IMG/VR virus record: IMGVR_UViG_3300006735_000014
DNA length: 64,000 nt
Origin: an uncultured virus (IMG/VR IMGVR_UViG_3300006735_000014)
Lineage: Duplodnaviria > Heunggongvirae > Uroviricota > Caudoviricetes
Strand: one strand, 5' to 3'
In this document: positions 43,085-64,000 of the stretch, in pieces
How the letters are laid out: the number at the start of each line of letters is the position of its first letter
Position numbering within the stretch: position 1 is the stretch's first letter
Made by a program: the position numbers and the translations under genes
Notes under the pieces: generated by a model
What the model was told of the DNA's origin: nothing
Database searches by the model: none
What the model saw: the letters and a program-made list of their open reading frames with translations, nothing else

Positions 43085-45568
43085 TTAGCCGAATGCAAAA
43101 AATTTACCTAAATTATTATTCTCTGGGATTTTACCCCAATTCATTGCTCCATAGAAATCATTTAATTTGTTAGCAAATGCAGACGTAAATACTTTATTAT
43201 AGTTTATATTGTCTTGCACAAATTTTTCTATTGGAGGTGGATCTTCAAATCCTTTCATTGCTATTGTATCTAAGCCCATATTATTGGCCTTGAGATATGT
43301 CCATTTTATTTTTTCGCCATTAATGATTTCTCGAACATTTTTTACATTATGATGTTTTAACATATCATTATAATTCAATGCTGACTTAACATGTACTGGC
43401 GTTCCTTTCATTCTTACTGCAAATATTCCATCACCTTTACGTTGCCACTTCTTTACATTTTTAACACCAATTGGAAACATGACATCAATTAACGGTAATG
43501 TTTTCATGTACTCTTTAAAGTTTAGAATCTTTTCATCTAATTCTTCTTTTGAAATATCATTTAATATATCTTCTAGTACCTCAGCCATAAATTTTCTAAA
43601 GGCTGGTGGGAAGGAAGACCTTACAACATCTAATCCTTTGACATCTAGTTTAGATACTGTATGTCCTTCTATATTAATAATCCATTGAGCATATCTTTTC
43701 TTTGCAATCCATAAACCAGCTTTTGCAACATTTTCTTGCTTAATATCAAACTTATGAGTATTTACATTATGAAATTTATCAGCATATATATCATACGATC
43801 TATTTATAAAATCCTGTACTTCATCTGCAATTTCAATTGTTTTATCTGCCATCCATTTTTCATCTGTAATATCAAACTTTGGATACCTATGTTTTATAAT
43901 TGGTAATGATGAAAAGAATGTTGAATCTGTATCTGTATATATACAATAATCTTCTTTCTTATTTAATTCTCTTGTATAAAATTTATTTCCAATGTTTGCT
44001 GTAAATTTAATCAATTGTTGGCCTGTACTTGTAATGGCTACTGCATTATCAGGATCATTAAATCTAAATGTTGGATTACCTAATACTCCGTAAAATGAAT
44101 TAAGAAGAATTTTAGTTACTAATTGTAATCTATCAAAGTATTCAGCTTTTGCAGGATCACCTTCCTTTTCATACTTTTTTCTTAAGTTTTTATATTCAAC
44201 TCTTTCAGCAAACCATTTTTCAAGTATAGATGATATAAAACCTTTTTGATTTGTATCATATACAACGCCGTTAGCAGCAATAGAATATTTATTTTCTGTT
44301 AAATAAGATCTTAATTTTTCTGGTGATTCCCAACCATCATCACCCATTGAATATTCCATTGGAACATTTTTAATATATTTATGTCCATCAAAATCTTCAA
44401 CCTTTCCTATTTTAGTTTCTGGTGAAACGTTAAGTGTCATGATGATACTAGGATATAGAGATGTTAAATCAAGGTCATATACCCATTTATATCTACCTGG
44501 ATTTGGTGCCTTTACGAATGCTCCTAATAGATCTACTTGTTTTATCTCATCATGTCTAGGTTTGTTAGGTGCTACAATTCCTAATCGTTTCATATATGTT
44601 AATGCCGCACCATCTAAATATCTAGTCGGAAATAAAAAGTCTTCATATGGAACATGGCCTTTGTGACATATACCACGAGCTAAATCCATTAACTTCATTT
44701 TTTGATCTATCTCCCAAACCAAGTCAACATCATTCATATTGTAATCGATATAACCTTGAATGTCATTTTTTAATAAATCATCCAAAGTACCTTCATACTT
44801 CATTTTACCTTTACCCAATTCTTTTTGAGAGATAGCTTCTAACGAATAACTTGACTCTTCATTATAAGTAAAGTTTTTATATAATGCCATATAATCTAAG
44901 CATGATACTCCAGATATTCTATATCTATTTCTATGCTTTAACCAAATAACATCTTTAATAGGAGATAATGTTCTTGCTTGTTTTTCTCCTAATACATGAC
45001 ATATTCTATTATAAAGATATGGAATATCAAAAAAGTCAATATTCCAACCTGTAATTAAAGTAGGCATTATCTCGTAATATGTTATTAGAAATTTAGATAA
45101 TAATGAAGCTTCATCTGGACAAGATATTGTCTCAAAATTACCTTCTTTACGAGATGGCACCACTCCTTCTTTATCTAATATCCATACATATCTTTGATCA
45201 CCTGCTTCATCATAAATTGCAATAGAAGTTATTTCATTTTGAGCTTCTTCTGGAGTTGGAAATCCATTTTCAATATCAACTTCAATATCAATAAACAATG
45301 TTCTATGACCTGTAGATATTTCATCTGAATCTGTATACTGATCTATTAATGTCCTGATCTCAGGGTTAAGATCTGATTCATATAATCCAGGAGCTTCGGA
45401 ATCTGGGTTCCATACTTTATCTACACGAGTTCCATCTAATGTTGTTAATGCACCAGAAGGATTCTTTGCATATGCATATGGCTTATATTTTATTTTAAGA
45501 TGACCTTTAATATCATCCCATATATGTACTGTATTTGTACGTCGTTGATATGCTACTGCTTGATACAT
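43085..45568 (-). CDS. Family B DNA polymerase (T4 gp43-like)
   Basis: Exo DIE, GWN..FFDIPY, YN..D; pol DLTSLYPSII, KILLNSFYG, YTDTDS, KKRYA. Confidence 0.97.
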   Translation of the reverse strand: MYQAVAYQRRTNTVHIWDDIKGHLKIKYKPYAYAKNPSGALTTLDGTRVDKVWNPDSEAPGLYESDLNPEIRTLIDQYTDSDEISTGHRTLFIDIEVDIENGFPTPEEAQNEITSIAIYDEAGDQRYVWILDKEGVVPSRKEGNFETISCPDEASLLSKFLITYYEIMPTLITGWNIDFFDIPYLYNRICHVLGEKQARTLSPIKDVIWLKHRNRYRISGVSCLDYMALYKNFTYNEESSYSLEAISQKELGKGKMKYEGTLDDLLKNDIQGYIDYNMNDVDLVWEIDQKMKLMDLARGICHKGHVPYEDFLFPTRYLDGAALTYMKRLGIVAPNKPRHDEIKQVDLLGAFVKAPNPGRYKWVYDLDLTSLYPSIIMTLNVSPETKIGKVEDFDGHKYIKNVPMEYSMGDDGWESPEKLRSYLTENKYSIAANGVVYDTNQKGFISSILEKWFAERVEYKNLRKKYEKEGDPAKAEYFDRLQLVTKILLNSFYGVLGNPTFRFNDPDNAVAITSTGQQLIKFTANIGNKFYTRELNKKEDYCIYTDTDSTFFSSLPIIKHRYPKFDITDEKWMADKTIEIADEVQDFINRSYDIYADKFHNVNTHKFDIKQENVAKAGLWIAKKRYAQWIINIEGHTVSKLDVKGLDVVRSSFPPAFRKFMAEVLEDILNDISKEELDEKILNFKEYMKTLPLIDVMFPIGVKNVKKWQRKGDGIFAVRMKGTPVHVKSALNYNDMLKHHNVKNVREIINGEKIKWTYLKANNMGLDTIAMKGFEDPPPIEKFVQDNINYNKVFTSAFANKLNDFYGAMNWGKIPENNNLGKFFAFG

Positions 45569-46962: not shown

Positions 46963-47258
46963 ATTGATTTCATTGCTATTTCTGATTCTCTAACTAATAC
47001 ATACTTATTTCCATCTAATGTAACTTCATTACCATTTTTGCCTGATAAAAATCTTACTGGTAATAATACTGTATCTCCTTTTTTACATGACATTTCAATT
47101 AAATCTCCAGTCATTGTACGAACACCTACACCTGTAGCTATTACTTCAGCTTTTCCATATGTAGATGAATTAGCAGATAATATTAATCCATGTTCTGATT
47201 TTGTTTCTTCTTTTATTGGCTTTAACAATAATTGATCTCCTATAGGTTTCATTTTCAT
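46959..47258 (-). CDS. groES: Co-chaperonin GroES
   Basis: MKPIGDQLLLK, GLIL mobile loop, VIATGVG, KKGDTVL, YVLVRESEI. Confidence 0.9.
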   Translation of the reverse strand: MKMKPIGDQLLLKPIKEETKSEHGLILSANSSTYGKAEVIATGVGVRTMTGDLIEMSCKKGDTVLLPVRFLSGKNGNEVTLDGNKYVLVRESEIAMKSI

Positions 47259-47271
47259 AATTTCTCCTTTT

Positions 47272-48045
47272 TTATACCATTCGTTGTGTATTATATGCTA
47301 TGATATGATCTCTTCCTGTCATATTATAACCATGCTCTGCTACCATTTCAAATACTATTGGATACATTTTAATTAATTGTTCTCTAGTATCTCCGGCTGG
47401 CATTACATATGTCTTTCCTTTTGGAATATTTAATTCAACTCTTAATTCCTCAATTTCTTTTAAATTTTCTTCTGTTCCATCCCATACTGGCTTATAATGA
47501 TAATCATCATGAAATCTCATCATCATTTTTATTGCTTCTGTATTTTTTCTTAATCTATTATGAACTTTTATCATTCGTTCATCTACTATTTTTCCGGCTG
47601 GTGTTTTTTCTCCTAATTTAGGAATACTATTTGAAAACTTAGGACTAATAGATAATAAGTCTATTGGATAATCAGTATTAACAAAATGACTACCTTCTGT
47701 TTCTATAGTAACTATTATTTGTCTCTCATGAGCAAAATGAGTTATTTCATTAATTAATGCTGGATGCATTGTTGGTGATCCACCTGTTAACATCATTTCT
47801 TTTATTTGTGGATTTTCGTCATATATTTTGACTATATCATTAAAACAAAATGTACCTTTTTCTGGATGAATACTAGTATACCAACTATCACACCAACCAC
47901 CTTCTCCAAAGAAACATCTATGAGTACAACCTGTTGTTCTAACAGCAATTGTAGGACGACCAAACCTACTTCCTTCGGATTGGACACATCTATATACCTC
48001 TAATATAGGTAAAACTTTATTATAATCTTCTATTCTTTTATTCAC
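47272..48045 (-). CDS. queE: 7-carboxy-7-deazaguanine synthase (radical SAM)
   Basis: VQSEG...G.P...VRTTGCTHRC...WCDSWYT, LTGGSP, IETEG, SISPK. Confidence 0.93.
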   Translation of the reverse strand: MNKRIEDYNKVLPILEVYRCVQSEGSRFGRPTIAVRTTGCTHRCFFGEGGWCDSWYTSIHPEKGTFCFNDIVKIYDENPQIKEMMLTGGSPTMHPALINEITHFAHERQIIVTIETEGSHFVNTDYPIDLLSISPKFSNSIPKLGEKTPAGKIVDERMIKVHNRLRKNTEAIKMMMRFHDDYHYKPVWDGTEENLKEIEELRVELNIPKGKTYVMPAGDTREQLIKMYPIVFEMVAEHGYNMTGRDHIIAYNTQRMV

Positions 48046-48526
48046 TATATATCGATGAATTACGGTCGGCTTCCCAACATTCTACTTTAACTACTTTTAC
48101 TCTACCACCACCAGTCTTGGACATTACATCATTAAACTTATCATATACTAATTTGGCACATGATTCAGCTCCCATTTTATCCATTACTACTAGTTTAGCT
48201 ATTCCTTCCATTGCTGCACCTTGGAAGAAATCTAAATAAGGATCATCTTTCTCAATTAATAATGTATGGTCCCACATACTATTCATCCAATCCTTTAATC
48301 CATTTCCTGGGGTTGGTTCTGCGTCTTGAGATTTAAATCCTCCATAATCCATAATCCAATTCATTTCATCTAATTGATCACCTTCCATTGGCTCTACAGA
48401 TTCAAACCATACTTTAAATTTTAAAGCATATCCATGTAATAATTCACAATGAGAATGAGCTGCTTTCCATTGTCTTAATGCTACTGAATAATTATCGAAT
48501 ACTTTAGTTGATTGATACTTTCCCAT
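48038..48526 (-). CDS. queD: 6-carboxy-5,6,7,8-tetrahydropterin synthase
   Basis: HCELLHGY, WIMDYG, WDHT, GAE, VECWE..RNS. Confidence 0.9.
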   Translation of the reverse strand: MGKYQSTKVFDNYSVALRQWKAAHSHCELLHGYALKFKVWFESVEPMEGDQLDEMNWIMDYGGFKSQDAEPTPGNGLKDWMNSMWDHTLLIEKDDPYLDFFQGAAMEGIAKLVVMDKMGAESCAKLVYDKFNDVMSKTGGGRVKVVKVECWEADRNSSIYSE

Positions 48527-51310: not shown

Positions 51311-52666
51311 TTATTCAAAACCTTCATTTGAAATTTCTTGGTATTTACGTGCTAATAATTTTCTCGTAAGCTCATTACCTCCATCCATTTGCTTTTGTGT
51401 ATCCTTCCCACCTACTGACGTTTCTGCATATAAATGAAATTGTCCATTAGATGTATTCATTTTTGATGGTAATGTAATTCCATCAGGTCCAAATCTATTT
51501 TTAATAACATGCCATCTTCCAGTACCTGCCAATTTATCTGCTACCTTTCTAGATAATGATAATACAAAATCAGCAACCATTACTTTACCATATGATTCTG
51601 ATATCTTACTTGCATCAATAATATCTTCTTCTAGAGCCGATCTATTTGCTTGAGATGCTGTCCAAACTGGTATTTCATATTCTCCGGCCATACCTCTCAA
51701 GTCTTCATATATACCTTCAAGTTCATGTCTCTTTTCTTGTCCATGTCCTCTCAATAGATCTGCATAATCAACTATAATCACATCTGGTTTTTTACCTTGC
51801 ATTATACATTTTTCAACATGTGCTCTAACACCCATTACAGATACAGACTTTGTTGGATAATGTTTAATAATTAATTCACCTTTTAACTGAGATAATTGTT
51901 CTTTTATATCTTCTTGATAATGTTTCAAATTTTGATTGGCAATACCTGTTATAACTGAATCATATCTTAATCCAACATATGCTTCATTCAACTCTAATGT
52001 ATAATGTAATACTGTTTTGCCTTTCTTGACCGCATCTGCTCCGACATTCATTAATGCCCATGATTTACCAATTCCTGCAGGAGCAACCATTACACCAAGT
52101 TCACCTTTACCTAAACCACCATCTGTTAGTTCATTTATAACTTCCCATGGAGTAGGTTGTACATCTCTAACTGCATCTGTATATCGTTCATCTATACTTG
52201 TCATATAATCATGTCCAATATCTTTATCCGCTCCAGCTTTTAAAGCTTCATCAACTTTTGCTTTGATCCCATCATAGTCACCATTCTTTAATAATTCTAC
52301 AGATCCTAAAATAGCTTTTTTAATTTCTTGGTTTTTACAAAAATCCATTGCCTGATCTTTGATATATTCTAAATCAGGTGATTCTGTATATTTCCATGCA
52401 TCCTTAAGATGTGCAACTACTTGTTCTTTTAGTACATCATGGTCAACTTTTTCAAGTTTAACTTTCATCACTTCCAATGTAGGAGATGATTTATATTCTT
52501 TAAAGTATTCTAAAATTGTATCTATAATCCAGGCATTGGCATCAGATTCAAAATAACCTGAGACCATAATATCTGAAATTTGTTGTAGGAATGATTTATC
52601 TACTAGTAATGCTGTAATTACCTTTATCTGAAATGCGTATCCGTACGAACTTAATCTATCTGTCAT
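51311..52666 (-). CDS. Replicative DnaB-like helicase (T4 gp41-like)
   Basis: APAGIGKS Walker A, TLEL, IVDYADLL, WTASQANR, KNRFG. Confidence 0.93.
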   Translation of the reverse strand: MTDRLSSYGYAFQIKVITALLVDKSFLQQISDIMVSGYFESDANAWIIDTILEYFKEYKSSPTLEVMKVKLEKVDHDVLKEQVVAHLKDAWKYTESPDLEYIKDQAMDFCKNQEIKKAILGSVELLKNGDYDGIKAKVDEALKAGADKDIGHDYMTSIDERYTDAVRDVQPTPWEVINELTDGGLGKGELGVMVAPAGIGKSWALMNVGADAVKKGKTVLHYTLELNEAYVGLRYDSVITGIANQNLKHYQEDIKEQLSQLKGELIIKHYPTKSVSVMGVRAHVEKCIMQGKKPDVIIVDYADLLRGHGQEKRHELEGIYEDLRGMAGEYEIPVWTASQANRSALEEDIIDASKISESYGKVMVADFVLSLSRKVADKLAGTGRWHVIKNRFGPDGITLPSKMNTSNGQFHLYAETSVGGKDTQKQMDGGNELTRKLLARKYQEISNEGFE

Positions 52667-52669
52667 ACT

Positions 52670-52701
52670 TTAATATAATAATTTTTTTTCTAAAATCCTA
52701 A
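52670..52701 (-). promoter_or_regulatory. Host-sigma-type promoter TTAG-N20-TATATTAA upstream of the helicase
   Basis: 20-nt spacer; very close to the start codon, suggesting a short leader. Confidence 0.55.
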
Positions 52702-53768
52702 TCTTTTCGCATTTGAATATACGCGTTAAGAGTATTAAATGATGTTGCAAGCCAAGTATCTAAATCTTTAATGACTGTATACATTTTATCTTGCATAAAC
52801 ATCTTTTTAAATTGGAATGTATTTAACTTATCTACTGTTCCTGTAACCTTATCATGTATCATCATCTTTATAGAACCGGCAATATCAACCTCTTTGAGTT
52901 GCATAAGAGAATGGTTCAAGTCAACCTGGTCCTCTGATTCTACTACGGACTTATAGATTTTGTAGCGACCTTCATCTGCTCCATCTTTTGCATGATTTAT
53001 AATTTCATGTATTGGTACATGTCTATTTTCTGTAATCATTGGAAAAAATTTCTTCAATGATTTTAATGCAACTCCTTTAACTCCAGGAATATTATCTGAC
53101 TTATCACCTAGGAATGTTCTATATAATAAATAATTTGAAGCGTTAATTCCAAATTCTTCTTGCATTAATCTTGGATTGTACATTTTCTTTTTGATTGGAC
53201 TCCAAACAGATATCCTATCATTTACTAATTGTAAAAAATCTCTATCTGTAGATACAATTTGTACTTTTTGATTTGGTTCTGTATATACTTCGTTTGCAAT
53301 ATATGCTATTGCATCATCAGCCTCAATATTATCAACCGCTAACATTGTAATTGGTAAACAATTTAAATATTCAACTAATCTACCAAATTGTTTTTTCATG
53401 GAATCTGACTCATCTTCTTGTGTTGCAAATTCTTTATATCTGTTAAATGCTGTTTTTACAGCTCTATTTGCTTTATAATCTGGATAAATCTTTTTTCTAC
53501 GTTTAGATCCACCTTTACCATCAAAACAAACAATTACTCTTGTCGGCTTTAATAAACGAATATTTGCAGCTAATGATCTTAAAAATCCTGTAACACCACC
53601 AATATGATCTCCATCATCATTTAATGCAGGAACTGCGGAGAATACTCTAATAAAGGTATTAAGACCATCGAGTATTAATATCTTACTATTAATATCCGAT
53701 GGTCTACCTTCTTGATGTTCCCTAACAACATCTTGGAAAAACTTTTGAAGTTGCTTATGATTCTTCAT
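52698..53768 (-). CDS. 5'-3' exonuclease / flap endonuclease (T4 RNase H-like)
   Basis: ILDGLN, FDGKGG, YKANR, EADD, STDRDFLQL, GDKSDNIPGVKG. Confidence 0.93.
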   Translation of the reverse strand: MKNHKQLQKFFQDVVREHQEGRPSDINSKILILDGLNTFIRVFSAVPALNDDGDHIGGVTGFLRSLAANIRLLKPTRVIVCFDGKGGSKRRKKIYPDYKANRAVKTAFNRYKEFATQEDESDSMKKQFGRLVEYLNCLPITMLAVDNIEADDAIAYIANEVYTEPNQKVQIVSTDRDFLQLVNDRISVWSPIKKKMYNPRLMQEEFGINASNYLLYRTFLGDKSDNIPGVKGVALKSLKKFFPMITENRHVPIHEIINHAKDGADEGRYKIYKSVVESEDQVDLNHSLMQLKEVDIAGSIKMMIHDKVTGTVDKLNTFQFKKMFMQDKMYTVIKDLDTWLATSFNTLNAYIQMRKD

Positions 53769-54909
53769 TCACGAATTCTTCATCTATTTCAACATCATCT
53801 ATTCCAATATTGTCACCAGGTTTGTATGTTAATATATACGCATTACAAATAGCATTGTATATCTCATCCTTCAATTCCGGATCAGCTTCAAGTTTACCTT
53901 GAAAGTCTTTTGATAAGAATTTTACATCTGTACCATCTGCTTTTGTATATGTATACCACGCACCTGCTGTACTCACCAATTTATGTTGTTTCATAACATT
54001 TAACCAGCCACCAAAATTATCTATTCCACTTTCAAAGTAAATATCATAATCGATAGTCTTTAAAGGTGGACCCATTCTATTTTTAATAACTTGGCATCTA
54101 GTTTTGATACCAACAGTTTGATCAACGCCATCTTTTTTGACTTTGATTTGCCCTACTGATTTCAATCGTAACCGTACTGATGAGTGAAATGGAATTGCTT
54201 TTCCACCACTTGTTGTCCAAGGATCACCAAATGCTACACCTAGTCTTGAACGAAGCTGATTAGTAAACAATAAGGCAATTCGTTGTCTACCAATAAGATT
54301 TGTAATCTTACGCATACCTTTTGATAATATGATAGCTTTGGACGTTGCCCAACCATCTTTATCATAATCTGCTGCTTGCTCAATCTTTGTTGAAGCACCC
54401 ATTACTGAATCAACGACAATTGTTACCAATCGGTCTTTGTTAGATTTTCTAACTGATTCAATAATACTTTCAATTGCTTCAAAGATATCTTCAATAGCAT
54501 CTAATGGAACATAGAGCATTTTTTCCAGGTCTAATCCAATTGCTTCGAGAAACTCTCTACTAACTGCATTTTCTGTATCAATATAAACGGCTAACCCACC
54601 TTGCTTTTGCGTATCTGCTAAAGCATGAGCTGCCAATAATGATTTACCTGAAGCTTCTAATCCTGTTATCTCAGTTATTCTGCCAACTGGAAAACCTCCA
54701 TTTTGTCTATTTGAGATTGCTAAATCTAGCATAGAAGAGCCTGTACCTACCCAACCACCTACTTCACTAGGTGAATCTGTATCTCCGTCTAGGAAATATG
54801 CAACTTTATAGTTAGTATTTTTAAATTTCTTGTTAAGTCCTTCTCTAATACTTTCTCCTAAAGCTGTTGCTAGCTCGTCTGCTTGTTGTGCTTTACTTTT
54901 CTTTGCCAT
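53755..54909 (-). CDS. recA: RecA/UvsX recombinase
   Basis: GRITEITGLEASGKS, IDTE, VVDSV, FTNQLR, TSGGKA..FHSSVRL, KNR. Confidence 0.93.
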   Translation of the reverse strand: MAKKSKAQQADELATALGESIREGLNKKFKNTNYKVAYFLDGDTDSPSEVGGWVGTGSSMLDLAISNRQNGGFPVGRITEITGLEASGKSLLAAHALADTQKQGGLAVYIDTENAVSREFLEAIGLDLEKMLYVPLDAIEDIFEAIESIIESVRKSNKDRLVTIVVDSVMGASTKIEQAADYDKDGWATSKAIILSKGMRKITNLIGRQRIALLFTNQLRSRLGVAFGDPWTTSGGKAIPFHSSVRLRLKSVGQIKVKKDGVDQTVGIKTRCQVIKNRMGPPLKTIDYDIYFESGIDNFGGWLNVMKQHKLVSTAGAWYTYTKADGTDVKFLSKDFQGKLEADPELKDEIYNAICNAYILTYKPGDNIGIDDVEIDEEFVNEES

Positions 54910-54924
54910 ATATAACCTTTAATT

Positions 54925-55707
54925 TTATTCATTAAACAAATCATCAAATGCTGCTGAAACATCATCTACTTTGTTAACACCTTCTTTAACTGCATCTTCT
55001 TTCTTTGCTACTGGTTCTGCTGGTGTAGATGCAGGATCTGTAGTTGCATCATCTCCATCTGGATTCAACCAATTTGCTAAAGCTTCTTTTAATTCATCAT
55101 ATGATGGCTCTTTAAAAATATCTTTAAGATTAGGTTGATTCTTTGCACAAGCTTCTGCAACATTTTTGTCTTCAGTTAAAGCTGTAACATTAGGCTTTAC
55201 TCTAATTGCTGTTTTAGGAAATTGTCCTGGACCTTCTGCTGGTGTAAATTCAACTAAGATATCTCTACCATTCATTGGATCTGTAATGTCACCATAATCT
55301 GGATCAGCTATTACTCCTAAAAGTTCTTGATAAACTAGTTTACCAAATCCCCAAAATTTAACACCTTCTGATTCTTTTCCTCTAACTAATACAGGAACAT
55401 AAGTTCTCATTTTAGGTTCCATTTTCTTACCTAATTTCCATTCGTCTGAATTACCAGAAGATTTTAATTTTTCAGAAAATTCAACAACTGGATCTGGTCT
55501 ACCATGAGTTACTGGTGATAAAAAGTTTTTCTTACCTAAGTCATAGTGAAAGTACAATTCATTGAATGGATTGTCTTTGTTGTGCTGATAAGGTACGATT
55601 CTGATTATTTGTTTGCCTGGTTCAGGCTTCCATAAGTTTGACGTTCTATTATTCGTCGTTTGTAATTGATTAAGCTTTGCCTTAATCGCGTCTAAGTTAA
55701 TTGCCAT
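54925..55707 (-). CDS. Single-stranded DNA-binding protein (T4 gp32-like)
   Basis: LWKP..G...IRIVP, HY, GVKFWGFG, DITDPMNGRD, acidic tail AFDDLFNE; next to recA. Confidence 0.85.
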   Translation of the reverse strand: MAINLDAIKAKLNQLQTTNNRTSNLWKPEPGKQIIRIVPYQHNKDNPFNELYFHYDLGKKNFLSPVTHGRPDPVVEFSEKLKSSGNSDEWKLGKKMEPKMRTYVPVLVRGKESEGVKFWGFGKLVYQELLGVIADPDYGDITDPMNGRDILVEFTPAEGPGQFPKTAIRVKPNVTALTEDKNVAEACAKNQPNLKDIFKEPSYDELKEALANWLNPDGDDATTDPASTPAEPVAKKEDAVKEGVNKVDDVSAAFDDLFNE

Positions 55708-55745
55708 TTTTTTATTCCTTTTTTTTAATGGTTAATAATTAATAA

Positions 55746-55777
55746 TTAATATAACAACTTTATTTCAGTAATCCTAA
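55746..55777 (-). promoter_or_regulatory. Host-sigma-type promoter TTAG-N20-TATATTAA, proximal to ssb
   Basis: 20-nt spacer, intergenic. Confidence 0.6.
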
Positions 55778-55865
55778 TGATTTATCAAAAAAGTTGTAAA
55801 AAAGTTTTTATTTTTTATTTTTTAATTTTGAGTTTAATTATGGCTAAACTCTAATCCTTTTTATT

Positions 55866-55902
55866 TAATATAAATATAATGAAAATATTTCATATATCCT
55901 AA
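55866..55902 (-). promoter_or_regulatory. Distal ssb promoter TTAG-N20-TATATTTA overlapping an ATATTTATATTA motif
   Basis: Both motif classes coincide here (55871-55902 and 55866-55877). Confidence 0.5.
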
Positions 55903-55906
55903 TTTT

Positions 55907-56224
55907 TTATTCAAATTCTCCAAGTGCATCTTGCATTGTAGTTATTAAAGCATTTTCTTCAGTACTTGAAAGCTTTGTACCATCTAAATATTTATCATAT
56001 TCTTTTTCTAAACCTGCATCTTCAATATACTGATTTAATATTTCTAATGAATTTTCATCACTATAGTCGTAAATTGAATTATATACAGCTTGAACTTTTG
56101 GGTTTGCATTTTCTTTTATTAAAGTAGCATCATTGCTTCTTGTTTTACCTTCAAACAATTGTTTGTATTTTTTACCTAAATTCATTTTTTTTTGTTCTTT
56201 TTTATAGTGTTCTGAATATCCCAT
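55907..56224 (-). CDS. Hypothetical protein, possibly virion-associated
   Basis: 105 aa; YKQLFE and LIKE motifs. Confidence 0.55.
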   Translation of the reverse strand: MGYSEHYKKEQKKMNLGKKYKQLFEGKTRSNDATLIKENANPKVQAVYNSIYDYSDENSLEILNQYIEDAGLEKEYDKYLDGTKLSSTEENALITTMQDALGEFE

Positions 56225-56616
56225 TATACATCAAATCTTTTATATAACTCTAATACTATTCTACGGTATCCTTCATTATTAGTTAAGAGTAAACTATTTT
56301 TATAATTTTCCCATGCAATAATAAATGTTTTATCTAGAACTCCATTATTAACTGTTTTAATAATTTCATTTAATGCATTAACTGTATACAATGTATTTGT
56401 ATCTTTCTTTCTATGAATTAAAATTGTATTAGGTGTTTTTTTGTAATCTTCTTTAGGATCTACATTGTATGTAACATAAACATCATTTGGCTTATCTGCA
56501 TCATTAAACACAAAGATTTTTTTCTCTACGATTGTGTAACTTTTTTTAACATAATCGACTATGAGATTTAAATCCTTTCTATGAGCGAATGTACATAATA
56601 AATTTGTTCTTGCCAA
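56224..56616 (-). CDS. Hypothetical phage protein
   Basis: TTG start; LLCTF, VTYNV, HRKKDTNTLYTVNALN; late-type motif upstream. Confidence 0.7.
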   Translation of the reverse strand: MARTNLLCTFAHRKDLNLIVDYVKKSYTIVEKKIFVFNDADKPNDVYVTYNVDPKEDYKKTPNTILIHRKKDTNTLYTVNALNEIIKTVNNGVLDKTFIIAWENYKNSLLLTNNEGYRRIVLELYKRFDV

Positions 56617-56640
56617 AATCTTCTTCCTGTTTATTATTCT

Positions 56641-56651
56641 ATTATAAATAT
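56641..56651 (-). promoter_or_regulatory. Candidate late-promoter motif ATATTTATAAT
   Basis: Intergenic, upstream of 56616. Confidence 0.5.
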
Positions 56652-56679
56652 CAACTTTTATACTGAAACCTATAGTCTC

Positions 56680-57870
56680 TTAACCAAATATTGTTTTTAG
56701 ATTACCTTTAATAGATCCTCCTGAAACATTTAATGCATCTGCAGATTCTGAATCTATAGCAGTAATATCTATTTTATGAAAATGTACATCTGCTTTTCCT
56801 GGAATTACATTTGCAATATATCCCATTTGTCCTGGTTTGCTACCATATTTATTTGCTGCAAGCATTTGTAATACTTGTACTGCAAGTTCATCAGGTGTTG
56901 ATGATTTAGATAATCTATTAACATTTATCTCTACTTTTGACTTTCGACCTGAAGCTTCAAAAGATTTTTCCATATCATCAAATACTGAATTGGCATTCTT
57001 TATCATATCTGTAAATATACTATCTGATCCGAATATTTCTTCTAATTTTTCTAATCCTGGTAAATTTAGAAAAGTAAATAAAGAAGTTCCTGCTTCTACT
57101 ATATGTTTTTTACCAAATGTTATTTCTGTTATTGGATTAGCCACAGACCCCTCCTTAAAAGCTTTTGTTAATGCATGTATTCCAAATATATTTTGCACAA
57201 TTCTTCTTTCTAGTTTCATGTCTGACCACCTACCTAATCCAGTAATTCTAGAATGACTAGGATATGATTTTACTTCAACAGCCTTTTTGTCTATTCTTAA
57301 ATCGGGTGCACCTGAGCCTTCTTGAGTAGTATCTTCTGCTCTATTTGCCGAACCTTGTTGGAAATTAAACAACCAATACAATGCAATCTCACCTTTACCT
57401 ATAATTGCTAGATTATTATTTTCTGCCCATAATTCCTCAAATATTTCAATATCTTCTTTTTGCCATGCACCTACTAATGGTCCTGAATCGTTTGGTACAC
57501 TATATTTACCTTTTACCATTGGAATTACTTGAACTTGTAATCTTCTTTTGATTGCCTCATCATAATCAGTTGATGTTCCTGTACGTTCTTTTTCCTCTGA
57601 TTGAGTAGTATCAACATCTAGTTCATCTTTGCCTGGTATAAATTGATCGTCTGCTGGTGCTTCTTTTACAGGCTTTGCATCATTAAATGCTTGGTCTAAT
57701 TGAAAATCATCTTCTGTTAATGATTTGATAATAGGTATTGCATTTATTCCTTGTTCTATTAACACTTCTTTTAAAACATGGAGCTCGTCTTGGTTATATG
57801 GTTTTATCGCATAACCATTAGGTAGTCTGTAAAACCACTCTGTTAATATGTCATTTACGTTTCTTTGCAT
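56680..57870 (-). CDS. Hypothetical protein with a PD-(D/E)XK-like motif
   Basis: GKGEIAL...APDLRIDKKAVEVKSY; N-terminal ILTE...LTE segments. Confidence 0.55.
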   Translation of the reverse strand: MQRNVNDILTEWFYRLPNGYAIKPYNQDELHVLKEVLIEQGINAIPIIKSLTEDDFQLDQAFNDAKPVKEAPADDQFIPGKDELDVDTTQSEEKERTGTSTDYDEAIKRRLQVQVIPMVKGKYSVPNDSGPLVGAWQKEDIEIFEELWAENNNLAIIGKGEIALYWLFNFQQGSANRAEDTTQEGSGAPDLRIDKKAVEVKSYPSHSRITGLGRWSDMKLERRIVQNIFGIHALTKAFKEGSVANPITEITFGKKHIVEAGTSLFTFLNLPGLEKLEEIFGSDSIFTDMIKNANSVFDDMEKSFEASGRKSKVEINVNRLSKSSTPDELAVQVLQMLAANKYGSKPGQMGYIANVIPGKADVHFHKIDITAIDSESADALNVSGGSIKGNLKTIFG

Positions 57871-57872
57871 TT

Positions 57873-57883
57873 ATTATAAATAT
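57873..57883 (-). promoter_or_regulatory. Candidate late-promoter motif ATATTTATAAT
   Basis: In the 17-nt gap immediately before the 57870 start. Confidence 0.5.
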
Positions 57884-57887
57884 GTAG

Positions 57888-59234
57888 TTAAACTACTTTC
57901 TCGGTCATATTTATCATGTCATGCATAGATTTACCTGCTTTAATTTTAACTGGAAATTTATTATTTGTCATAGTATTCTTTAATTTAATAATTAGGTCTC
58001 TTCCGTCTTTAATATTAAAATCAAATAGCAATGAATCATATGTATATAAAATTAGTTTAGTATCATATGGTCCTAACAATGCATTTACTTCATTCATTAC
58101 AGCCATATTATATTCAGTTTCCATACTTTGTAAATAATAATTAAATAATTTACTTGGGTTCATATCAGACATTGCAGTTTTAAATAACTTTCTTTTTAAT
58201 ATAGCTGTTTCCATATATCCTTTAGATTGGAATTCTTTCCACAATTTATAAGTAAAATCTTTTACTTTACCAAAGAATGTAATTTTTGCAAAATCTTTAT
58301 CAACACCTCCATATAATAATCGGAATGATATTTGTTTACTTTGTTCATATTCTTCTTCTGATAATTTATCTTTTCCAAAATATTGTTTACCTAAATATGT
58401 ATGAACATTTTCTTTTCCAAAATCATAATCTATAATATCTCCAATTAATCGTAAATGGTAAGAGTCATAGTCTAACTCTAATAACATACCATATTCATGT
58501 CTTGATATAAATGATTTTCTAGATCCATCTATTTTATTTATGGCAGCATAATTTACACCACCATGTTTATTTGAAGGACGTCCTGTGGTTGTATAAATAT
58601 TATATTCTGTATATGCCGTTTTTCCAACTAAATTATTTGTTTGGAATTTTTCTACAAATTTATCATAATTAACTTTTAATCCATTTCTTTCAATTGCATA
58701 TAAGTTATCTATAAATAATTCGTTATAATAATCAAATCCATCTGTACGCTTAAATGTAGAATATGATTGTATAAATTTATTTTTCATTGCAGAACATCTT
58801 TCATAATGTTTAACTATAGGAACATAATCATGCACATTGGTTTCATTATAGTACCATTTATTATACCAATCATGAGCATTTGTATCACAATCTTCTAATT
58901 GTAACATTTGATTTGATTGAAAATATTCAACTAAATCTGCATCATAGGTCTTATGATGGTAGAAATTTACAAAGCGTTTCTTCCCCAAAACATATATATC
59001 AGCCTTACTTGTAAGCCTGTTTAGATGTTCGGATTCTAGGCATATACAATCCTTATGACGGAATGGTACAATATATTCTTTTTTAGTATCCATAACATAT
59101 ATATAAACAAAACTTATTTCATTATTCACATAATGTTTATATAAATCAGAAAATACTGGTATCCACAAACTATTAGATGTCTGTAATGCTTGATGTAGCT
59201 CTTGTAACCTTTTTTTGTCTTCTACAATTTTCAT
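57888..59234 (-). CDS. Short, divergent family A DNA polymerase
   Basis: TTGRPS, motif A DYDSYHLRL, motif B KQISFRLLYG, NYYLQS, motif C YTYDSLLFD; only 448 aa. Confidence 0.85.
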   Translation of the reverse strand: MKIVEDKKRLQELHQALQTSNSLWIPVFSDLYKHYVNNEISFVYIYVMDTKKEYIVPFRHKDCICLESEHLNRLTSKADIYVLGKKRFVNFYHHKTYDADLVEYFQSNQMLQLEDCDTNAHDWYNKWYYNETNVHDYVPIVKHYERCSAMKNKFIQSYSTFKRTDGFDYYNELFIDNLYAIERNGLKVNYDKFVEKFQTNNLVGKTAYTEYNIYTTTGRPSNKHGGVNYAAINKIDGSRKSFISRHEYGMLLELDYDSYHLRLIGDIIDYDFGKENVHTYLGKQYFGKDKLSEEEYEQSKQISFRLLYGGVDKDFAKITFFGKVKDFTYKLWKEFQSKGYMETAILKRKLFKTAMSDMNPSKLFNYYLQSMETEYNMAVMNEVNALLGPYDTKLILYTYDSLLFDFNIKDGRDLIIKLKNTMTNNKFPVKIKAGKSMHDMINMTEKVV

Positions 59235-59238
59235 TAAT

Positions 59239-59270
59239 TAATTATAATGAATTTTTTTCAAATAACCAAA
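59239..59270 (-). promoter_or_regulatory. Host-sigma-type promoter TTTG-N20-TATAATTA upstream of the family A polymerase
   Basis: 20-nt spacer; fills the intergenic gap. Confidence 0.55.
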
Positions 59271-60125
59271 TTAATAGCCAGAAGATTGTCCACCACCGGC
59301 TGAGTCTTTAGATCTTGCTTGTTGCATTGCATGTTGTCCTGGAGTCATTAATTTATCATGTGCAACTTTATTACTATGTTTTTTACCTCGCATTGGACCC
59401 ATTTGCGAATGAATATGATAATAACCTATATATGGAGTTCCGTCTGGTAATACAAACTCTGATCCATCTGTATGAAGATTATCCTGTTGTTGACCTGCAG
59501 GTCCATCTCCACGTATTTTATTATACGGTGAATGTTGAGTTAAGTCTCGTAATGCATCTGAAAGACCTGGCATTTTCATATTTTGTGCAAATGCCGTCCT
59601 TCTATTTGTAGATTCTATTCCATATGATTTAATTCGTGTTTTTTCTTTATCATGATATATATCATAACGAGGTCCTGCTATTTTCCATCTAATGGATATT
59701 TTATCGTATATAAATCCATTAATATTTTTACCATCTTTTGATTTAACATCTTTATATTGTTTTTTATCAATTTCAATTACTGGTTTATCAAGATCATTTT
59801 TTTGTTTAATAAAATATCTCATCATATAACCATTTGCAAGATCATTTGGTCCAGGTCCGGGTGTTTTATAAATAGGTGATTTGAATTCATATAAATTCTG
59901 TGTTGTTAATAAATCGTATACAATTATATCACGAGTAGTAGTTGGAGCTTGATATTTTCGTAATACAATTGAATCATCATTAGGATATGCTCCAGTCATT
60001 ACTAATTCATAATTACCAAAATAATGATATGGACCTGCATACTCATTGCCACTGAAATCCATAAACTCTTTACCATGAGTATGGTTTCCATAATGTCTAT
60101 CTTTTTTTGCGTAATATCTTGCCAT
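59271..60125 (-). CDS. Hypothetical protein at the end of the tail gene run, with a duplicated G.EF...G..Y.G.YH module
   Basis: HGKEFMDFSGNEYAGPYH near the N-terminus and DGSEFVLPDGTPYIGYYH near the C-terminus. Confidence 0.65.
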   Translation of the reverse strand: MARYYAKKDRHYGNHTHGKEFMDFSGNEYAGPYHYFGNYELVMTGAYPNDDSIVLRKYQAPTTTRDIIVYDLLTTQNLYEFKSPIYKTPGPGPNDLANGYMMRYFIKQKNDLDKPVIEIDKKQYKDVKSKDGKNINGFIYDKISIRWKIAGPRYDIYHDKEKTRIKSYGIESTNRRTAFAQNMKMPGLSDALRDLTQHSPYNKIRGDGPAGQQQDNLHTDGSEFVLPDGTPYIGYYHIHSQMGPMRGKKHSNKVAHDKLMTPGQHAMQQARSKDSAGGGQSSGY

Positions 60126-62182
60126 TATTTTTCTATCCTACATATTGTTTCAACTTCGGTTGTCCACTGATTTGGTGTTAATTCATGTATTGTTTTTTTA
60201 ACAGTAAATACTATATTTATGTTATTTGTATAATATCGTGAAGGTGCTAAATTAGTTATACATGCATTACCAAATTGAATACCTGCAATACCTTCTAATG
60301 TTGCTGACATTTCTAATGGATACATATCTTTTCTGAATCCAGCTTTATCACTATGTTCAAATGCAGATTCTACATATGATTTTAAATTTGATTTTGCTGC
60401 AGATATTGACTCTTCATTATATCCTGTATCATGTATTACTTCACGAGATTCAATTAAACTATTTCGTATCTTAGCTTTATTTACTAATGTTACTACTTGT
60501 TCTCCTTTAATAACTTCTACTGCTGCATTCTTTTTTCCTGAAGCTGTTCCTGTTCCTCCTACGAATGCCGCGGCTGCCATATCTTTTGGAACTTTACCAG
60601 TTAATTGTACATTCCTGGTAGAATTATCTCCACCTGCATGTCCGCCTGCATTAAATTCTAATTTTGGAGTTTGTCCTGCAGAACCTGGAACCCAATTTCT
60701 GTCTACTACATACATGTATTTATCACCTCCAGCTTCTCCATAATGAGATGCCTGTTCGGGTGTCATTTGAGTTACTGTTAAATCCCATGCTCCTCCAGTA
60801 TGATTATATATTTCTGAAAATAATTTATTTAAAAATTTTCCTATTCCTATCTTTGAACCTTCGCCACCCATTTCAGAAGCTCCAGCTATACTTCTTAATA
60901 AATCTCTAGAGATTAATGTATTTGCAATTTTTGCTGTTCCTGTGCCATCCATTACCAAAGGATTTGGAAAATTCTTACCCCATATCTTTGATGCACCAAA
61001 AAATCGTCCAATAGCTCCTCCACCTGTACCTCCGTAATGAGATGAACCTCTTGAGTCTGTACCTCGTATTAATATTTTCATAGGATTAGCAGAAAATAAT
61101 TTATCATATTCTTTACCTATAGTAACATTGTTATTACATACATATTGGATGCCTTGTACATCTACATTTTGACTTTCAATGTTTCCTTGTAATAAATCTT
61201 TATTAATTAGTTTATTAATAACATATCCTAATGATGCAAATATAACATTACCACCTACCATATTATCATTTGCAGGTTCTGGAGCTGCATCTGGACAATC
61301 ACATCCTGCTATATGTGCTACACCTCCCATACCAGGATAAACATATCCTTCATCTTCATCTAAGTCTTCATGATCATCCATTCTATCTTGTACATCATAA
61401 TCAAATACATCAAATATATTAACACAGGTTTGAGTTTCATTTAATCCTGCAAAATCAGAAGTAAATTCTCTTCCGTCATCAGCTAATTTTGAATTAACAT
61501 TTAATTCTGTAATTAAGTTTCCTTTTCCTACAGCTTTTATTTCACAATCATAACCTAATTCATTATTCATTTTAAATGAATAATCATATACTACTCCTGA
61601 AAATTCATCATTATTTGCTGGTCCAGAAACTCCTACTCTACCATATGCTATATTAACATCTGTTCCTGGTATCATATAAATCTTTTCAAATTCTTCAAAT
61701 GATTGTTTATCAAAACATTTTATTTGTAAAATACATTTTACTAAAGATCCATAATCACCAGACATTTCAACTGTAAATTTTTGGATAGCAGGAGATGGTC
61801 TTCCAGATGTTGTAGCATATCTAGATGATAAACTTGTATCAGCCAATGTAGATATTTGTCCTTCAGCTGCAATTTTGTGACCAACAACTCGTTGTTTGGT
61901 TTCCATAGCTTCAGATTCTTTAGCTTCTCCAAATAAAACATTTGATGCACCTCTTCCTAATAAAATGTCGGTTGCGCCACGACCTGCAGTTCCAAGACCG
62001 TCTTTAATTGCTTGGCCTGTATCTAGATCCTGATAGTTTTGTGTTACTGGTTCTGTTCTTCTTGCATTAATAGAAATATAACAACCGTTAACTTTTCGGC
62101 TTTCTACATAACCAAGGCCTTTTCGTCGGTCAAGTTCATCTCGTACAAACTCTTGGGCAGCTGAATAAAATACTCCTGCCAT
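60125..62182 (-). CDS. Putative baseplate hub / tail structural protein
   Basis: 685 aa; IQKFTVEMSG...FSGVVYDYSF...DCEIKAVG and C-terminal LEMSATLEGIAGI...HEL...WTTEVET resemble hub beta-barrels; follows a LysM-like gene. Inference. Confidence 0.5.
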   Translation of the reverse strand: MAGVFYSAAQEFVRDELDRRKGLGYVESRKVNGCYISINARRTEPVTQNYQDLDTGQAIKDGLGTAGRGATDILLGRGASNVLFGEAKESEAMETKQRVVGHKIAAEGQISTLADTSLSSRYATTSGRPSPAIQKFTVEMSGDYGSLVKCILQIKCFDKQSFEEFEKIYMIPGTDVNIAYGRVGVSGPANNDEFSGVVYDYSFKMNNELGYDCEIKAVGKGNLITELNVNSKLADDGREFTSDFAGLNETQTCVNIFDVFDYDVQDRMDDHEDLDEDEGYVYPGMGGVAHIAGCDCPDAAPEPANDNMVGGNVIFASLGYVINKLINKDLLQGNIESQNVDVQGIQYVCNNNVTIGKEYDKLFSANPMKILIRGTDSRGSSHYGGTGGGAIGRFFGASKIWGKNFPNPLVMDGTGTAKIANTLISRDLLRSIAGASEMGGEGSKIGIGKFLNKLFSEIYNHTGGAWDLTVTQMTPEQASHYGEAGGDKYMYVVDRNWVPGSAGQTPKLEFNAGGHAGGDNSTRNVQLTGKVPKDMAAAAFVGGTGTASGKKNAAVEVIKGEQVVTLVNKAKIRNSLIESREVIHDTGYNEESISAAKSNLKSYVESAFEHSDKAGFRKDMYPLEMSATLEGIAGIQFGNACITNLAPSRYYTNNINIVFTVKKTIHELTPNQWTTEVETICRIEK

Positions 62183-62183
62183 G

Positions 62184-62489
62184 TTATCTCTCCGATTGTT
62201 TAATTTTTAATAACGAATGTAGTTCACGTCTTGAAGGAATACGCAATCTTATTCCTGCAGGGACCATTAATGTACCTTTACCTATATGATTTGCTTGTGC
62301 TAATACCCACCACTGAGATGAATCTTCATAATATTCATATGCAAGATTATCTAACCTATCTCCTTCTCGTGCAATAATATAATAATCTTGATCAGTAGCC
62401 GCAACCTTTGGTGGTAATGCGGACATATGAGTCTTACGCTTTTTCTTAGTATCTAACTTTTCATCAATAATGTATTTATATCTATTCAT
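62184..62489 (-). CDS. LysM-like baseplate wedge / tail X-type protein
   Basis: REGDRLDNLAYEYYEDSSQWWVLAQAN...GIRLRIP. Confidence 0.8.
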   Translation of the reverse strand: MNRYKYIIDEKLDTKKKRKTHMSALPPKVAATDQDYYIIAREGDRLDNLAYEYYEDSSQWWVLAQANHIGKGTLMVPAGIRLRIPSRRELHSLLKIKQSER

Positions 62490-62499
62490 AAATTATCTC

Positions 62500-63999
62500 C
62501 TAATCAAATGGGTTCAAGAAATTAATAACTTTTTTACCTCCGGATTTTACACCATCATATGCTTTACTTGCCAATCCAGATATTTGTTTAGATGCTGCAT
62601 TATCTCCTGATTGGTCACCTGGGATAAAGAAATCTAATAATCCATCTCCTGCATCAACTACTCCGCCTACTACATCTCCTGCTACATCATTAAACATGTT
62701 ATATGGTTCATCTGCAATAGATGATACTCCTTCTGGCAATCCTTCAACTAAATCATCTACTGCATCAAACTGTGATGGTTGTTTTCCATCTGCTGCGCCC
62801 TTAGCTACATTAGATCCTCTAAATTTTGCAATGTCATAGAATTTTGCACCGTCTTGAGGAATTTCAGAACCTATATATGCAAATTCTATAGTTACATTAC
62901 AATATAATGGTAAACGTTTTCCAGCTGTTATTTCCCATGGTACTTCTGGATCTAAATCAATTCCTACACTTGTTATATAACATGGCATACCATTAAACAT
63001 ATCTCCTAATGTTAATTCAACAAATGTTCCAGTATATCCATTACCTACATATTTAGGAGCAGTAAATCCTGCTAATACATTTAACTTATCCCACATTGGA
63101 ACTAATTCACCTGCTGATGCGGCTGCAATTGTTAAATCTAAAGATACTGTTCTTGCAAATCCTGTATATATTATTTTTGGATCTGCTCTACCAATTTCTT
63201 TTTCTTGACTCCATTCTGGTGAAAATGAATCACTTATAGAATTAATTCCAGCTCTCCAATATAATGCATCTCCGCCTCCTTGTCGAGTAATAAAAAATGG
63301 AACCATATCTTCTTTACTTGGACTTCCTCCCACTCCTAATAAATTTAATTCATCTGGTTGGTTGGCTCCACCATATCCTAATTGGTCTCTACTACGAGTT
63401 GATATCTCATTTCTTATACCATTGCTAATAGCTCTTCTAAATTCTTGTATCTTCTTTGTTCCTGTTACAATACCTGATTGCTTTGCAGCTGCTCTTATTT
63501 CTGCATAGTTCATGTAATTGTATACTAATGGTGTACCAGCTGAAGTTTTTGGTTTTCCTCCTACTTGTCTAATATTACCTGTGTCGTCTGGTCTTGCTTT
63601 TTCATTTTGTAATGGATCTAATTTGGCTAATATTTCTTGATCAACTGTTGTAAGATCTTTTGTTGATTGTCCTGAAATTGATTGTTGACCAACTGATGGT
63701 GATGCTCCTACTTTTGGCGAAGAAGGACTATATAGTTGAGTAACTGGTATTTGATTATACATTGGTATTATGGTTGGATCATCTACACCATATACATATG
63801 CAAATACATTACCTAAATCATCTCCTGATTCTAATTGACCATATTTTTGTTTTAAACTAATATAATCATGTGGTCCACCATCATCAATTTGATCTCTTGT
63901 ATTACCTGTAAAGAATTTTAAATCTGGAGTAAAGTAATTAAATATTGCCTCTCCAACTTTAACTGCATTAAGTCCTGAAACATCTTTACTTGATATAAG
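62500..63999 (-). CDS. Putative tail-tube-initiator/baseplate protein; partial, starts beyond the window end
   Basis: The frame stays open from 63762 to 63999 (manual check); ISDSFSPEW...GRADP...YTGFARTVS...LTLGD...CYITSV pattern upstream of the LysM-like gene. Confidence 0.55.
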   Translation of the reverse strand, partial: LISSKDVSGLNAVKVGEAIFNYFTPDLKFFTGNTRDQIDDGGPHDYISLKQKYGQLESGDDLGNVFAYVYGVDDPTIIPMYNQIPVTQLYSPSSPKVGASPSVGQQSISGQSTKDLTTVDQEILAKLDPLQNEKARPDDTGNIRQVGGKPKTSAGTPLVYNYMNYAEIRAAAKQSGIVTGTKKIQEFRRAISNGIRNEISTRSRDQLGYGGANQPDELNLLGVGGSPSKEDMVPFFITRQGGGDALYWRAGINSISDSFSPEWSQEKEIGRADPKIIYTGFARTVSLDLTIAAASAGELVPMWDKLNVLAGFTAPKYVGNGYTGTFVELTLGDMFNGMPCYITSVGIDLDPEVPWEITAGKRLPLYCNVTIEFAYIGSEIPQDGAKFYDIAKFRGSNVAKGAADGKQPSQFDAVDDLVEGLPEGVSSIADEPYNMFNDVAGDVVGGVVDAGDGLLDFFIPGDQSGDNAASKQISGLASKAYDGVKSGGKKVINFLNPFD

Positions 64000-64000
64000 T

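Follow-up and report, generated by a model that had tools for sequence, protein, structure and literature searches.

A divPolA1-type polymerase with a rewired active site, probably auxiliary to PolB, in an uncultured marine tailed phage

The stretch of DNA analyzed here (the window, 64,000 nucleotides of the uncultured caudovirus in IMG/VR record IMGVR_UViG_3300006735_000014) has its genes in a single long run on the minus strand, with about 30% G+C, and encodes at positions 57888..59234 (minus strand) a 448-aa DNA polymerase in an open reading frame (ORF) with an ATG start. The sequence relationships, the predicted fold and the gene neighborhood of this protein point to the divPolA1 family of divergent family A polymerases (PolA) and suggest a role next to, rather than in place of, the main replicative enzyme. 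The original prediction, made from the sequence alone, had posited a second, minimal PolA beside a full family B DNA polymerase (PolB), and this claim is borne out. The 448-aa protein matches Pfam DNA_pol_A (PF00476) over residues 206-432 with 46.9 bits, the cut-off being 34.3, and an 827-aa PolB, recognized by Pfam DNA_pol_B together with an exo domain and by phrog_262 at 647 bits, is encoded at 43085..45568 (minus strand), with Exo I-III, motifs A, B and C and KKRY all intact. Against the Pol I equivalog of NCBIfam, the 448-aa protein scores 28 bits only (cut-off 720); PHROGs contains no family for it, PADLOC gives no match, and a single-sequence phmmer search of PDB chains found no relevant structure, although a profile of the family did match.

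That profile derives from alignment A1, which consists of the query and 146 relatives sharing 31-58% identity with it (147 rows), and it aligns with Klenow fragment chains at an E-value of 8e-13. Motif A, DYDSYHLR (58449..58472, minus strand; aa 255-262), carries the catalytic D255, equivalent to D705, and His260 at the position of E710 (D255-Y-D-S-Y-H260 vs D705-Y-S-Q-I-E710); the motif A Glu, E710 in Escherichia coli Pol I, is the steric gate that excludes ribonucleotides. In motif B, the O helix YEQSKQISFRLLYG (58308..58349, minus strand; aa 296-309), Y296 occupies the R754 position, and K300, F304 and Y308, the counterparts of K758, F762 and Y766, are kept. Motif C, YTYDS (58032..58046, minus strand; aa 397-401), retains the catalytic D400, equivalent to D882, and has Y399 for H881 and S401 for E883. 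The minor-groove readers are also in place, with R219 (within a TGR motif), R239, N365 and Q369 corresponding to R668, R682, N845 and Q849, respectively. A weak hhalign alignment to T7 DNA polymerase puts H260 on the Glu of the DASGLE motif, in the same register. The motif readings of the original prediction, namely, DYDSYH in motif A, Tyr for Arg in motif B and TYDS in motif C, with both catalytic Asp residues and the Lys, Phe and Tyr of motif B preserved, are thus correct, and every residue equivalence that it claimed holds in the profile alignment with Klenow.

Across the 147 rows, R219, D255, K300, Q369, E372, Y399 and D400 are invariant, and Y308 and F304 are kept in 146 and 142 sequences, respectively. 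Position 260 is His in all sequences but one, which has Gln, and is preceded at position 259 by Tyr in 99 sequences and by Phe in 37. Position 401 is occupied by Ser (123), Ala (19) or Gly (5). The loosest of the altered positions is 296, with Tyr in 113 sequences, Ile in 15, Arg in 6, Val in 5, Leu in 4 and His in 3, and no pattern of covariation with the other changed sites is detectable in A1. The active-site substitutions are, judging from these alignments, family traits under selection. The steric-gate Glu in motif A and HDE in motif C are the marks of the canonical DNA-synthesizing family A enzymes, and both are changed here: because His260 (146/147) and Y-D-S replace them, the protein is a divergent member of the superfamily and not a canonical Pol I. 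A literature search for His at the steric gate of a phage family A polymerase found no study.

In a tblastn search of 50,697 phage records, strong, near-full-length matches came only from four records for Flavobacterium phage vB_FspM_immuto (34% identity), from LR756508, an uncultured 484-kb phage (34%), and from Microcystis phage Mel-JY01 (26%), and weak partial matches were to PolAs of Staphylococcus phages. The match to gp001 of immuto extends over 88% of the query with 34.1% identity (E 3e-68), and the reciprocal local tblastn gives an E-value of 6.5e-73. This gp001 is the exemplar of the divPolA1 family, named by Yutin et al. (2024, Virol J 21:200, PMC11348598). According to the accessible part of that paper, divPolA1 is encoded besides a regular DNA polymerase in large (155-190 kb) phage genomes, with 14 such phages counted, and is followed by replication genes in a conserved arrangement; the catalytic residues of its palm are conserved, the thumb is truncated and the three catalytic Asp of the exo domain are replaced, the conclusion being that divPolA1 probably keeps polymerase activity and has no exonuclease activity. 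The protein from the window combines homology to the exemplar, a regular polymerase elsewhere, replication genes downstream, the retained palm Asp residues, a truncated thumb and the replacement of the exo Asp residues, and by sequence it is a member of divPolA1 from an uncultured marine phage. The same part of PMC11348598 contains no text on the change of E710 to His, of HDE to YDS or of R754; its Figure 5 motif alignments may show the His.

The family is large, well beyond the 14 phages of that count. Clustering of the divPolA1 homologs at 90% identity leaves more than 4,000 clusters; at 50% identity, 587 have E-values of 1e-30 or lower, nearly all with proteins of 420-470 aa; because of these numbers, the observation is far beyond chance. 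At least 597 stretches in IMG/VR are confirmed to carry the gene.

An AlphaFold2 model built from A1 has a mean pLDDT (predicted local distance difference test) score of 97.4 and a predicted template modeling (pTM) score of 0.93. The best Foldseek matches of this model, with E-values from 3.5e-19 to 1e-15, are human Pol nu (4xvm, E 3.5e-19), Klenow (TMq 0.78) and Pol theta, followed by mycobacterial Pol1, Bacillus Pol I and the apicoplast polymerase. In the VIA-align comparison with the large fragment of Bacillus Pol I (BF), 410 residues are aligned with Z 28.0 and a root-mean-square deviation of 3.4 Å, and residues 1-441 of the model cover residues 301-876 of the BF chain, that is, the whole large fragment. 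Because the model aligns with BF from residue 1, the N-terminal 165 residues or so (58740..59234, minus strand) can be taken as an exo-like domain. A DEDD exonuclease site was not found in residues 1-165, as judged by conservation in the 147 rows, without superposition on D355, D424 and D501: D98 (141/147) is the sole acidic residue that is conserved in at least 80% of the sequences. Several residues of this domain outside a DEDD set are themselves conserved, namely, H34 (138/147), H60 (141/147), K86 (118/147) and P139 (138/147).

The exo-like domain is followed by a thumb stub (58635..58739, minus strand; approximately aa 166-200). From G185, the conserved Gly of an E-x-x-G motif, to R219 there are 34 residues, compared with 124 in Klenow up to R668, and so about 90 residues of the thumb are missing. 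Overall, the protein is shorter than Klenow by about 157 residues, with about 90 lost from the thumb, 32 from the fingers and 36 from the exo-like domain, and it terminates where Pol I ends, without a C-terminal extension. Thus, the protein shares with the Pol I large fragment (Klenow and Bacillus) the exo-like/palm/fingers fold, the Asp pair, the Lys, Phe and Tyr of the O helix as well as the minor-groove readers, and differs from it in the lack of a DEDD site, in the changes of E710 to His, H881 to Tyr, E883 to Ser and, mostly, R754 to Tyr, and in size. Human Pol nu and Pol theta are comparable as family A enzymes that have an inactive exo-like domain, do not proofread and are used in repair rather than in bulk replication, but their identity to the divPolA1 protein analyzed here is only 11-13% in the Foldseek alignments, and in both of them the thumb is complete and the Glu of the steric gate and the HDE motif are present.

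The genes downstream of divPolA1, all on the minus strand, make up a replication module. Directly downstream is a 396-aa ORF (56680..57870), for which there is no match in Pfam, PHROG, NCBIfam or PADLOC and which is a clade-specific insert: among 86 related loci in which gene order was compared, with only those that have enough flank counted in each case, it lies between divPolA1 and the next gene in 19 of 76, all close relatives of the window. A PD...E-x-K-like stretch can be read by eye in this ORF. Next comes orf130, a conserved small ORF of 130 aa (56224..56616) that is the homolog of immuto gp002 (39% identical), followed by a gp32-type single-stranded DNA (ssDNA)-binding protein (54925..55707; Pfam gp32, E 2.6e-13), a RecA/UvsX-type recombinase (53755..54909; Pfam RecA, E 2.1e-52), a stand-alone 5'-3' exonuclease of the FEN/RNase H type (52698..53768; Pfam 5_3_exonuc_N, E 2e-35) and a DnaB-type replicative helicase (51311..52666; Pfam DnaB_C, E 6.3e-19). 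The order is well conserved across the related loci: orf130 is always found between divPolA1 and gp32 (49/49 loci with at least 5 kb downstream), gp32 is present in 32 of the 33 loci with at least 8 kb and RecA in 22 of the 23 with at least 10 kb, FEN, DnaB and ribonucleotide reductase come after RecA, and upstream, on the same strand, a baseplate-wedge-like ORF appears in all 38 loci with at least 8 kb. The succession divPolA1, orf130, gp32, RecA, FEN, DnaB also recurs in immuto, Mel-JY01 and LR756508. A scan of positions 55500-60500 detected 37 promoter-like sites, with 39.6 expected, and one terminator-like site, with 1.3 expected. Among the 70 further ORFs of the window compared with Pfam, there are clamp-loader subunits, an ATP-dependent ligase, a class II ribonucleotide reductase, GroEL and GroES.

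The small protein orf130 is more conserved than divPolA1, with a mean column identity of 54% in an alignment of 51 sequences (A2), in which H68, R69, K71, N74, Y77, N80, N83 and D95 are invariant; the gap that separates the two genes varies from 37 to 3,384 nt across the related loci. It matches no Pfam, PHROG or NCBIfam family and has no usable match in the ESM Atlas. The model of orf130 has a pLDDT of 93.1, and Foldseek returns 0 matches at E-values of 0.001 or lower; the best VIA Z score, 6.4, is to ferredoxin-like (ACT or RRM) domains, over residues 1-68, and neither Foldseek nor VIA reveals an OB fold in the model.

The original prediction had noted that no primase gene was visible, which stands for the window, where none of the 70 ORFs of at least 80 aa matches a Pfam primase family at an E-value of 0.001 or lower, but not for the genome. 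A contig of 103 kb (G002) overlaps positions 51929-64000 of the window with 99.96% identity over 12,072 bases and extends 91 kb further, so that the two together span at least 155 kb; the nearest other record (G001) is a 33-kb fragment that does not include the divPolA1 gene. About 52 kb past the end of the window, at positions 59311-60072 of G002, there is a 307-aa ORF of the DnaG type, with Zn_ribbon_DnaG (residues 25-66), DNAG_N (114-145), Toprim_2 (201-278) and a match to TIGR01391 dnaG (E 1e-11). In the protein scan each of these domain matches is below its curated cut-off, yet they come in the DnaG order, and in the frame search of G002 Toprim_2 reaches 24.4 bits, above the cut-off of 22.1. 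DnaG-type ORFs are also present in G003 and in the complete relatives G004 and G006 (157 and 160 kb), as open frames of 313-326 aa; altogether, they were detected in 4 of the 17 records searched, including both records that are at least 90% complete, the others being fragments. Given these ORFs in the near-identical contig, in G003 and in both complete relatives, the replisome of these phages does not lack a primase, and the premise from which the original prediction had argued for priming fails. Beside the primase ORF of G002 (locus L009, 2-1444, minus strand), an ORF that is open at its 3' end combines Metallophos with a downstream AAA_23/SMC-type P-loop domain and looks like an Mre11-Rad50-like (gp46/47-type) recombination nuclease.

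PolB accompanies divPolA1 in G003-G006 (four of five records; G002 starts past the PolB position) and in Mel-JY01 and LR756508, and in LR756508.1 (260623-266900) the family B polymerase matches lie in separate frames (1022 and 625 aa), suggesting a split or interrupted PolB. In immuto, divPolA1 likewise heads the SSB-RecA-FEN-DnaB block (SSB, ssDNA-binding protein) and co-occurs with a regular polymerase and with GroEL/GroES, but the regular polymerase is a PolA of 778 aa and no PolB was found, unlike in the phage of the window. Thus, the type of the regular polymerase differs between carriers and divPolA1 is constant, in agreement with PMC11348598. In all four genome pairs compared with the window, divPolA1 is the least conserved replication protein: its identity is 55.7% in G003, 38.6% in G004, 38.7% in G005 and 35.7% in G006, and that of PolB is 79.5%, 46.3%, 47.5% and 50.3%, respectively, with gp32, RecA and DnaB above both polymerases wherever they can be compared.

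At 45794-48526 of the window (minus strand), FolE, GroES, QueE and QueD adjoin a phosphoribosyltransferase of the HGPRT-like type, which reaches 138.9 bits for TIGR01203, with a cut-off of 150. The FolE, QueD and QueE of this group are homologs of the immuto proteins, as found by local tblastn and Pfam, and FolE is also present in G003, G004 and G006. Local tblastn with immuto proteins detected no QueC, DpdA3, DpdN or QueF in the window, and for QueC (PF06508) there was a single weak match, in G005, with none in the window or the two complete relatives. Neither the DpdA3 of immuto nor the Pfam TGT family was matched in the five related records searched (0/5 each), a result that does not establish absence, given that the TGT control failed on immuto itself (0/1).

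Two other features of the window are at some distance from the replication genes. An island of about 24 kb (9429-33606, minus strand) consists of sugar-nucleotide and glycan genes within a phage genome: three NAD-dependent epimerases/dehydratases, a DegT-type aminotransferase, a UDP-glucose dehydrogenase, a cytidylyltransferase, a PNP/UDP phosphorylase, two amidotransferases of the GATase plus Asn-synthase type, a methyltransferase and several glycosyltransferases. Beside the DNA ligase, a 1013-aa ORF (5431-8472, minus strand) belongs to no Pfam or PHROG family; a feature search of the ESM Atlas leads to viral Laminin_G_3/concanavalin-like lectin proteins (score 0.91, a lead), and the product may be a fiber or receptor-binding protein.

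Taken as a whole, divPolA1 is a Klenow-shaped family A polymerase in which the proofreading domain persists as a scaffold only, the thumb is almost deleted and the nucleotide pocket is rewired. Because the metal-binding Asp pair, the Lys, Phe and Tyr of the O helix and the minor-groove readers are all kept, the protein is most likely active as a template-directed, primer-dependent DNA polymerase. We consider it reasonably probable that it is an auxiliary, distributive enzyme of this kind that carries out short-patch synthesis beside the PolB replicase. Such a distributive enzyme would have low processivity, a role to which we are led by the lack of a thumb, of proofreading and of a clamp-binding extension, and by the divergence of divPolA1, which is faster than that of PolB; the main replicase would be the proofreading PolB, with the clamp and the clamp loader. 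One option is the filling of gaps in the maturation of Okazaki fragments, together with the stand-alone FEN and the ligase; another is the extension of recombination intermediates made by RecA. Of the uses that the original prediction had offered, RNA priming loses its premise with the DnaG-type primase, and gap filling, judged from the genomic context, is the most plausible option. Several points weigh against the auxiliary role. E883 and H881 contribute to Pol I catalysis, so that the activity of divPolA1 could be low or altered; its faster divergence supports an accessory status only weakly; and the short-patch role is read from features that the protein appears to lack. The literature found under the name divPolA1 consists of Yutin et al. 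2024 and a preprint, with no biochemistry among it, and PMC11348598, in the part accessible, points out that divPolA1 is the first gene in the most conserved block, with the regular polymerase in a variable neighborhood, so that divPolA1 could equally be the core enzyme.

This last idea, in which divPolA1 itself is the core replicase and the accessory enzyme is the interchangeable PolA, PolB or PolC, would account for a constant divPolA1 at the head of the conserved block next to regular polymerases of varying type, and for the persistence of the module at an identity as low as 26%, in Mel-JY01. We nevertheless regard it as improbable: an enzyme with no thumb, proofreading or C-terminal extension that diverges faster than PolB in four of four pairs stands next to a PolB with all exonuclease and polymerase motifs and to clamp-loader genes, in genomes of at least 155 kb that would need high fidelity. 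That divPolA1 is instead a catalytically dead scaffold, a structural or regulatory part of the replisome, seems extremely unlikely. The equivalents of E883 and H881 are indeed lost and that of R754 usually is, but the metal Asp pair and the equivalents of K758, F762, Y766, R668, R682, N845 and Q849 are invariant or nearly so in 147 sequences, and because this catalytic set is preserved, divPolA1 looks like an enzyme under selection and not a dead one. Only slightly less remote is the notion that divPolA1 is a specialized polymerase that inserts or copies 7-deazaguanine derivatives, much as DpoZ does with 2-aminoadenine, as the original prediction allowed in suggesting that the protein may handle modified nucleotides. 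The FolE, QueD, QueE and HGPRT-like genes of the window and the FolE of three relatives speak for such a link, but position 7 faces the major groove, at a distance from the altered residues. In immuto, the G of the DNA is fully replaced by fdPreQ1; this replacement is attributed, in the part of PMC10516641 accessible, to DpdA3, a transglycosylase acting on DNA. Mel-JY01 and LR756508 carry divPolA1 with its whole module and no FolE (0/2; immuto control 1/1), and hence divPolA1 is not tied to the 7-deazaguanine pathway, which weakens the suggestion. Furthermore, with strong divPolA1 matches confined to immuto, LR756508 and Mel-JY01 among the records searched, other phages with full replacement would manage without divPolA1.

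A role in the handling of primers has more in its favor, although we still hold it to be unlikely. Under this scenario, divPolA1 would make primers de novo or briefly extend RNA primers, in a Pol alpha-like manner, perhaps together with orf130 or gp32 and with relaxed sugar selectivity. The changed residues, the equivalents of E710, R754, H881 and E883, which map by the Klenow alignment, all surround the incoming nucleotide and the primer end. The Ser after the catalytic Asp is common to divPolA1 and T7 RNA polymerase (HDS, 811-813), T7 DNA polymerase having HDE, and divPolA1 is in every case followed by a small ORF with strong conservation, at a distance down to 37 nt. There is also a precedent for a truncated family A polymerase that, with a small ssDNA-binding protein, is a DNA primase: CCPol of SCCmec needs a primer when alone and, in complex with the small protein MP, initiates DNA chains, as described in the accessible parts of PMC7581432, PMC10061031 and PMC10201439. 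The CCPol-MP system (Bebel et al. 2020, PMC7581432; Rice 2023, PMC10061031), which shows that the catalytic core of a PolA can become a primase, resembles the divPolA1 module in the shrunken family A polymerase, the small conserved neighbor and the helicase further on. However, CCPol has no exo domain, whereas divPolA1 retains an exo-like one; MP is an OB-fold ssDNA binder, whereas orf130 shows no OB fold in the Foldseek and VIA comparisons and at best resembles ACT/RRM-like domains; no sequence link between CCPol-MP and divPolA1 was seen; and the divPolA1 phages carry a DnaG-type primase, found in G002 as well as in the complete relatives G004 and G006. None of the tests favors the use of rNTPs, nor does the gate resemble that of an RNA polymerase: the position is Gly in T7 RNA polymerase (DGSCSG) and in divPolA1 a His, as bulky as the Glu, preceded by Tyr or Phe (DYDSYH), and because such a His, not Gly, replaces the Glu, the sugar gate appears to be remodeled rather than opened. 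Comparison of divPolA1 by hhalign gives a probability of 0.09 for T7 RNA polymerase and of 0.42 for T7 DNA polymerase, both insignificant, and the top Foldseek and VIA matches listed include no RNA polymerases, all of them being DNA polymerases. A related version, in which the family-wide rewiring near the incoming sugar and the primer end, with the gate His, YDS for HDE and the lost gamma-phosphate Arg, adapts divPolA1 to extend the short RNA primers of the DnaG-type primase before they pass to the replicase, of whatever type, to accept 2'-substituted nucleotides or, with orf130, to start DNA chains in the manner of CCPol-MP, we judge to be about as doubtful, or a shade more so; if it is true, a very abundant group of marine phages would possess a third, Pol alpha-like polymerase activity.

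The preferred reading, that of an active auxiliary polymerase, concerns a family that is large and abundant in marine viromes and is conserved across Flavobacterium phages, a Microcystis phage and a phage of 484 kb. The family can be viewed as a natural experiment in minimizing the Pol I core, in which the thumb and proofreading are gone, the gate and motif C are changed, and selection is strong. What the replacement of Glu by His and of HDE by YDS does to the handling of the sugar and of the primer is a question worth taking to the bench, and the protein is possibly a compact polymerase of biotechnological use. Knowledge of the sugar selectivity, processivity and partners of divPolA1 would explain the retention of a second polymerase in phages that exchange their main one.

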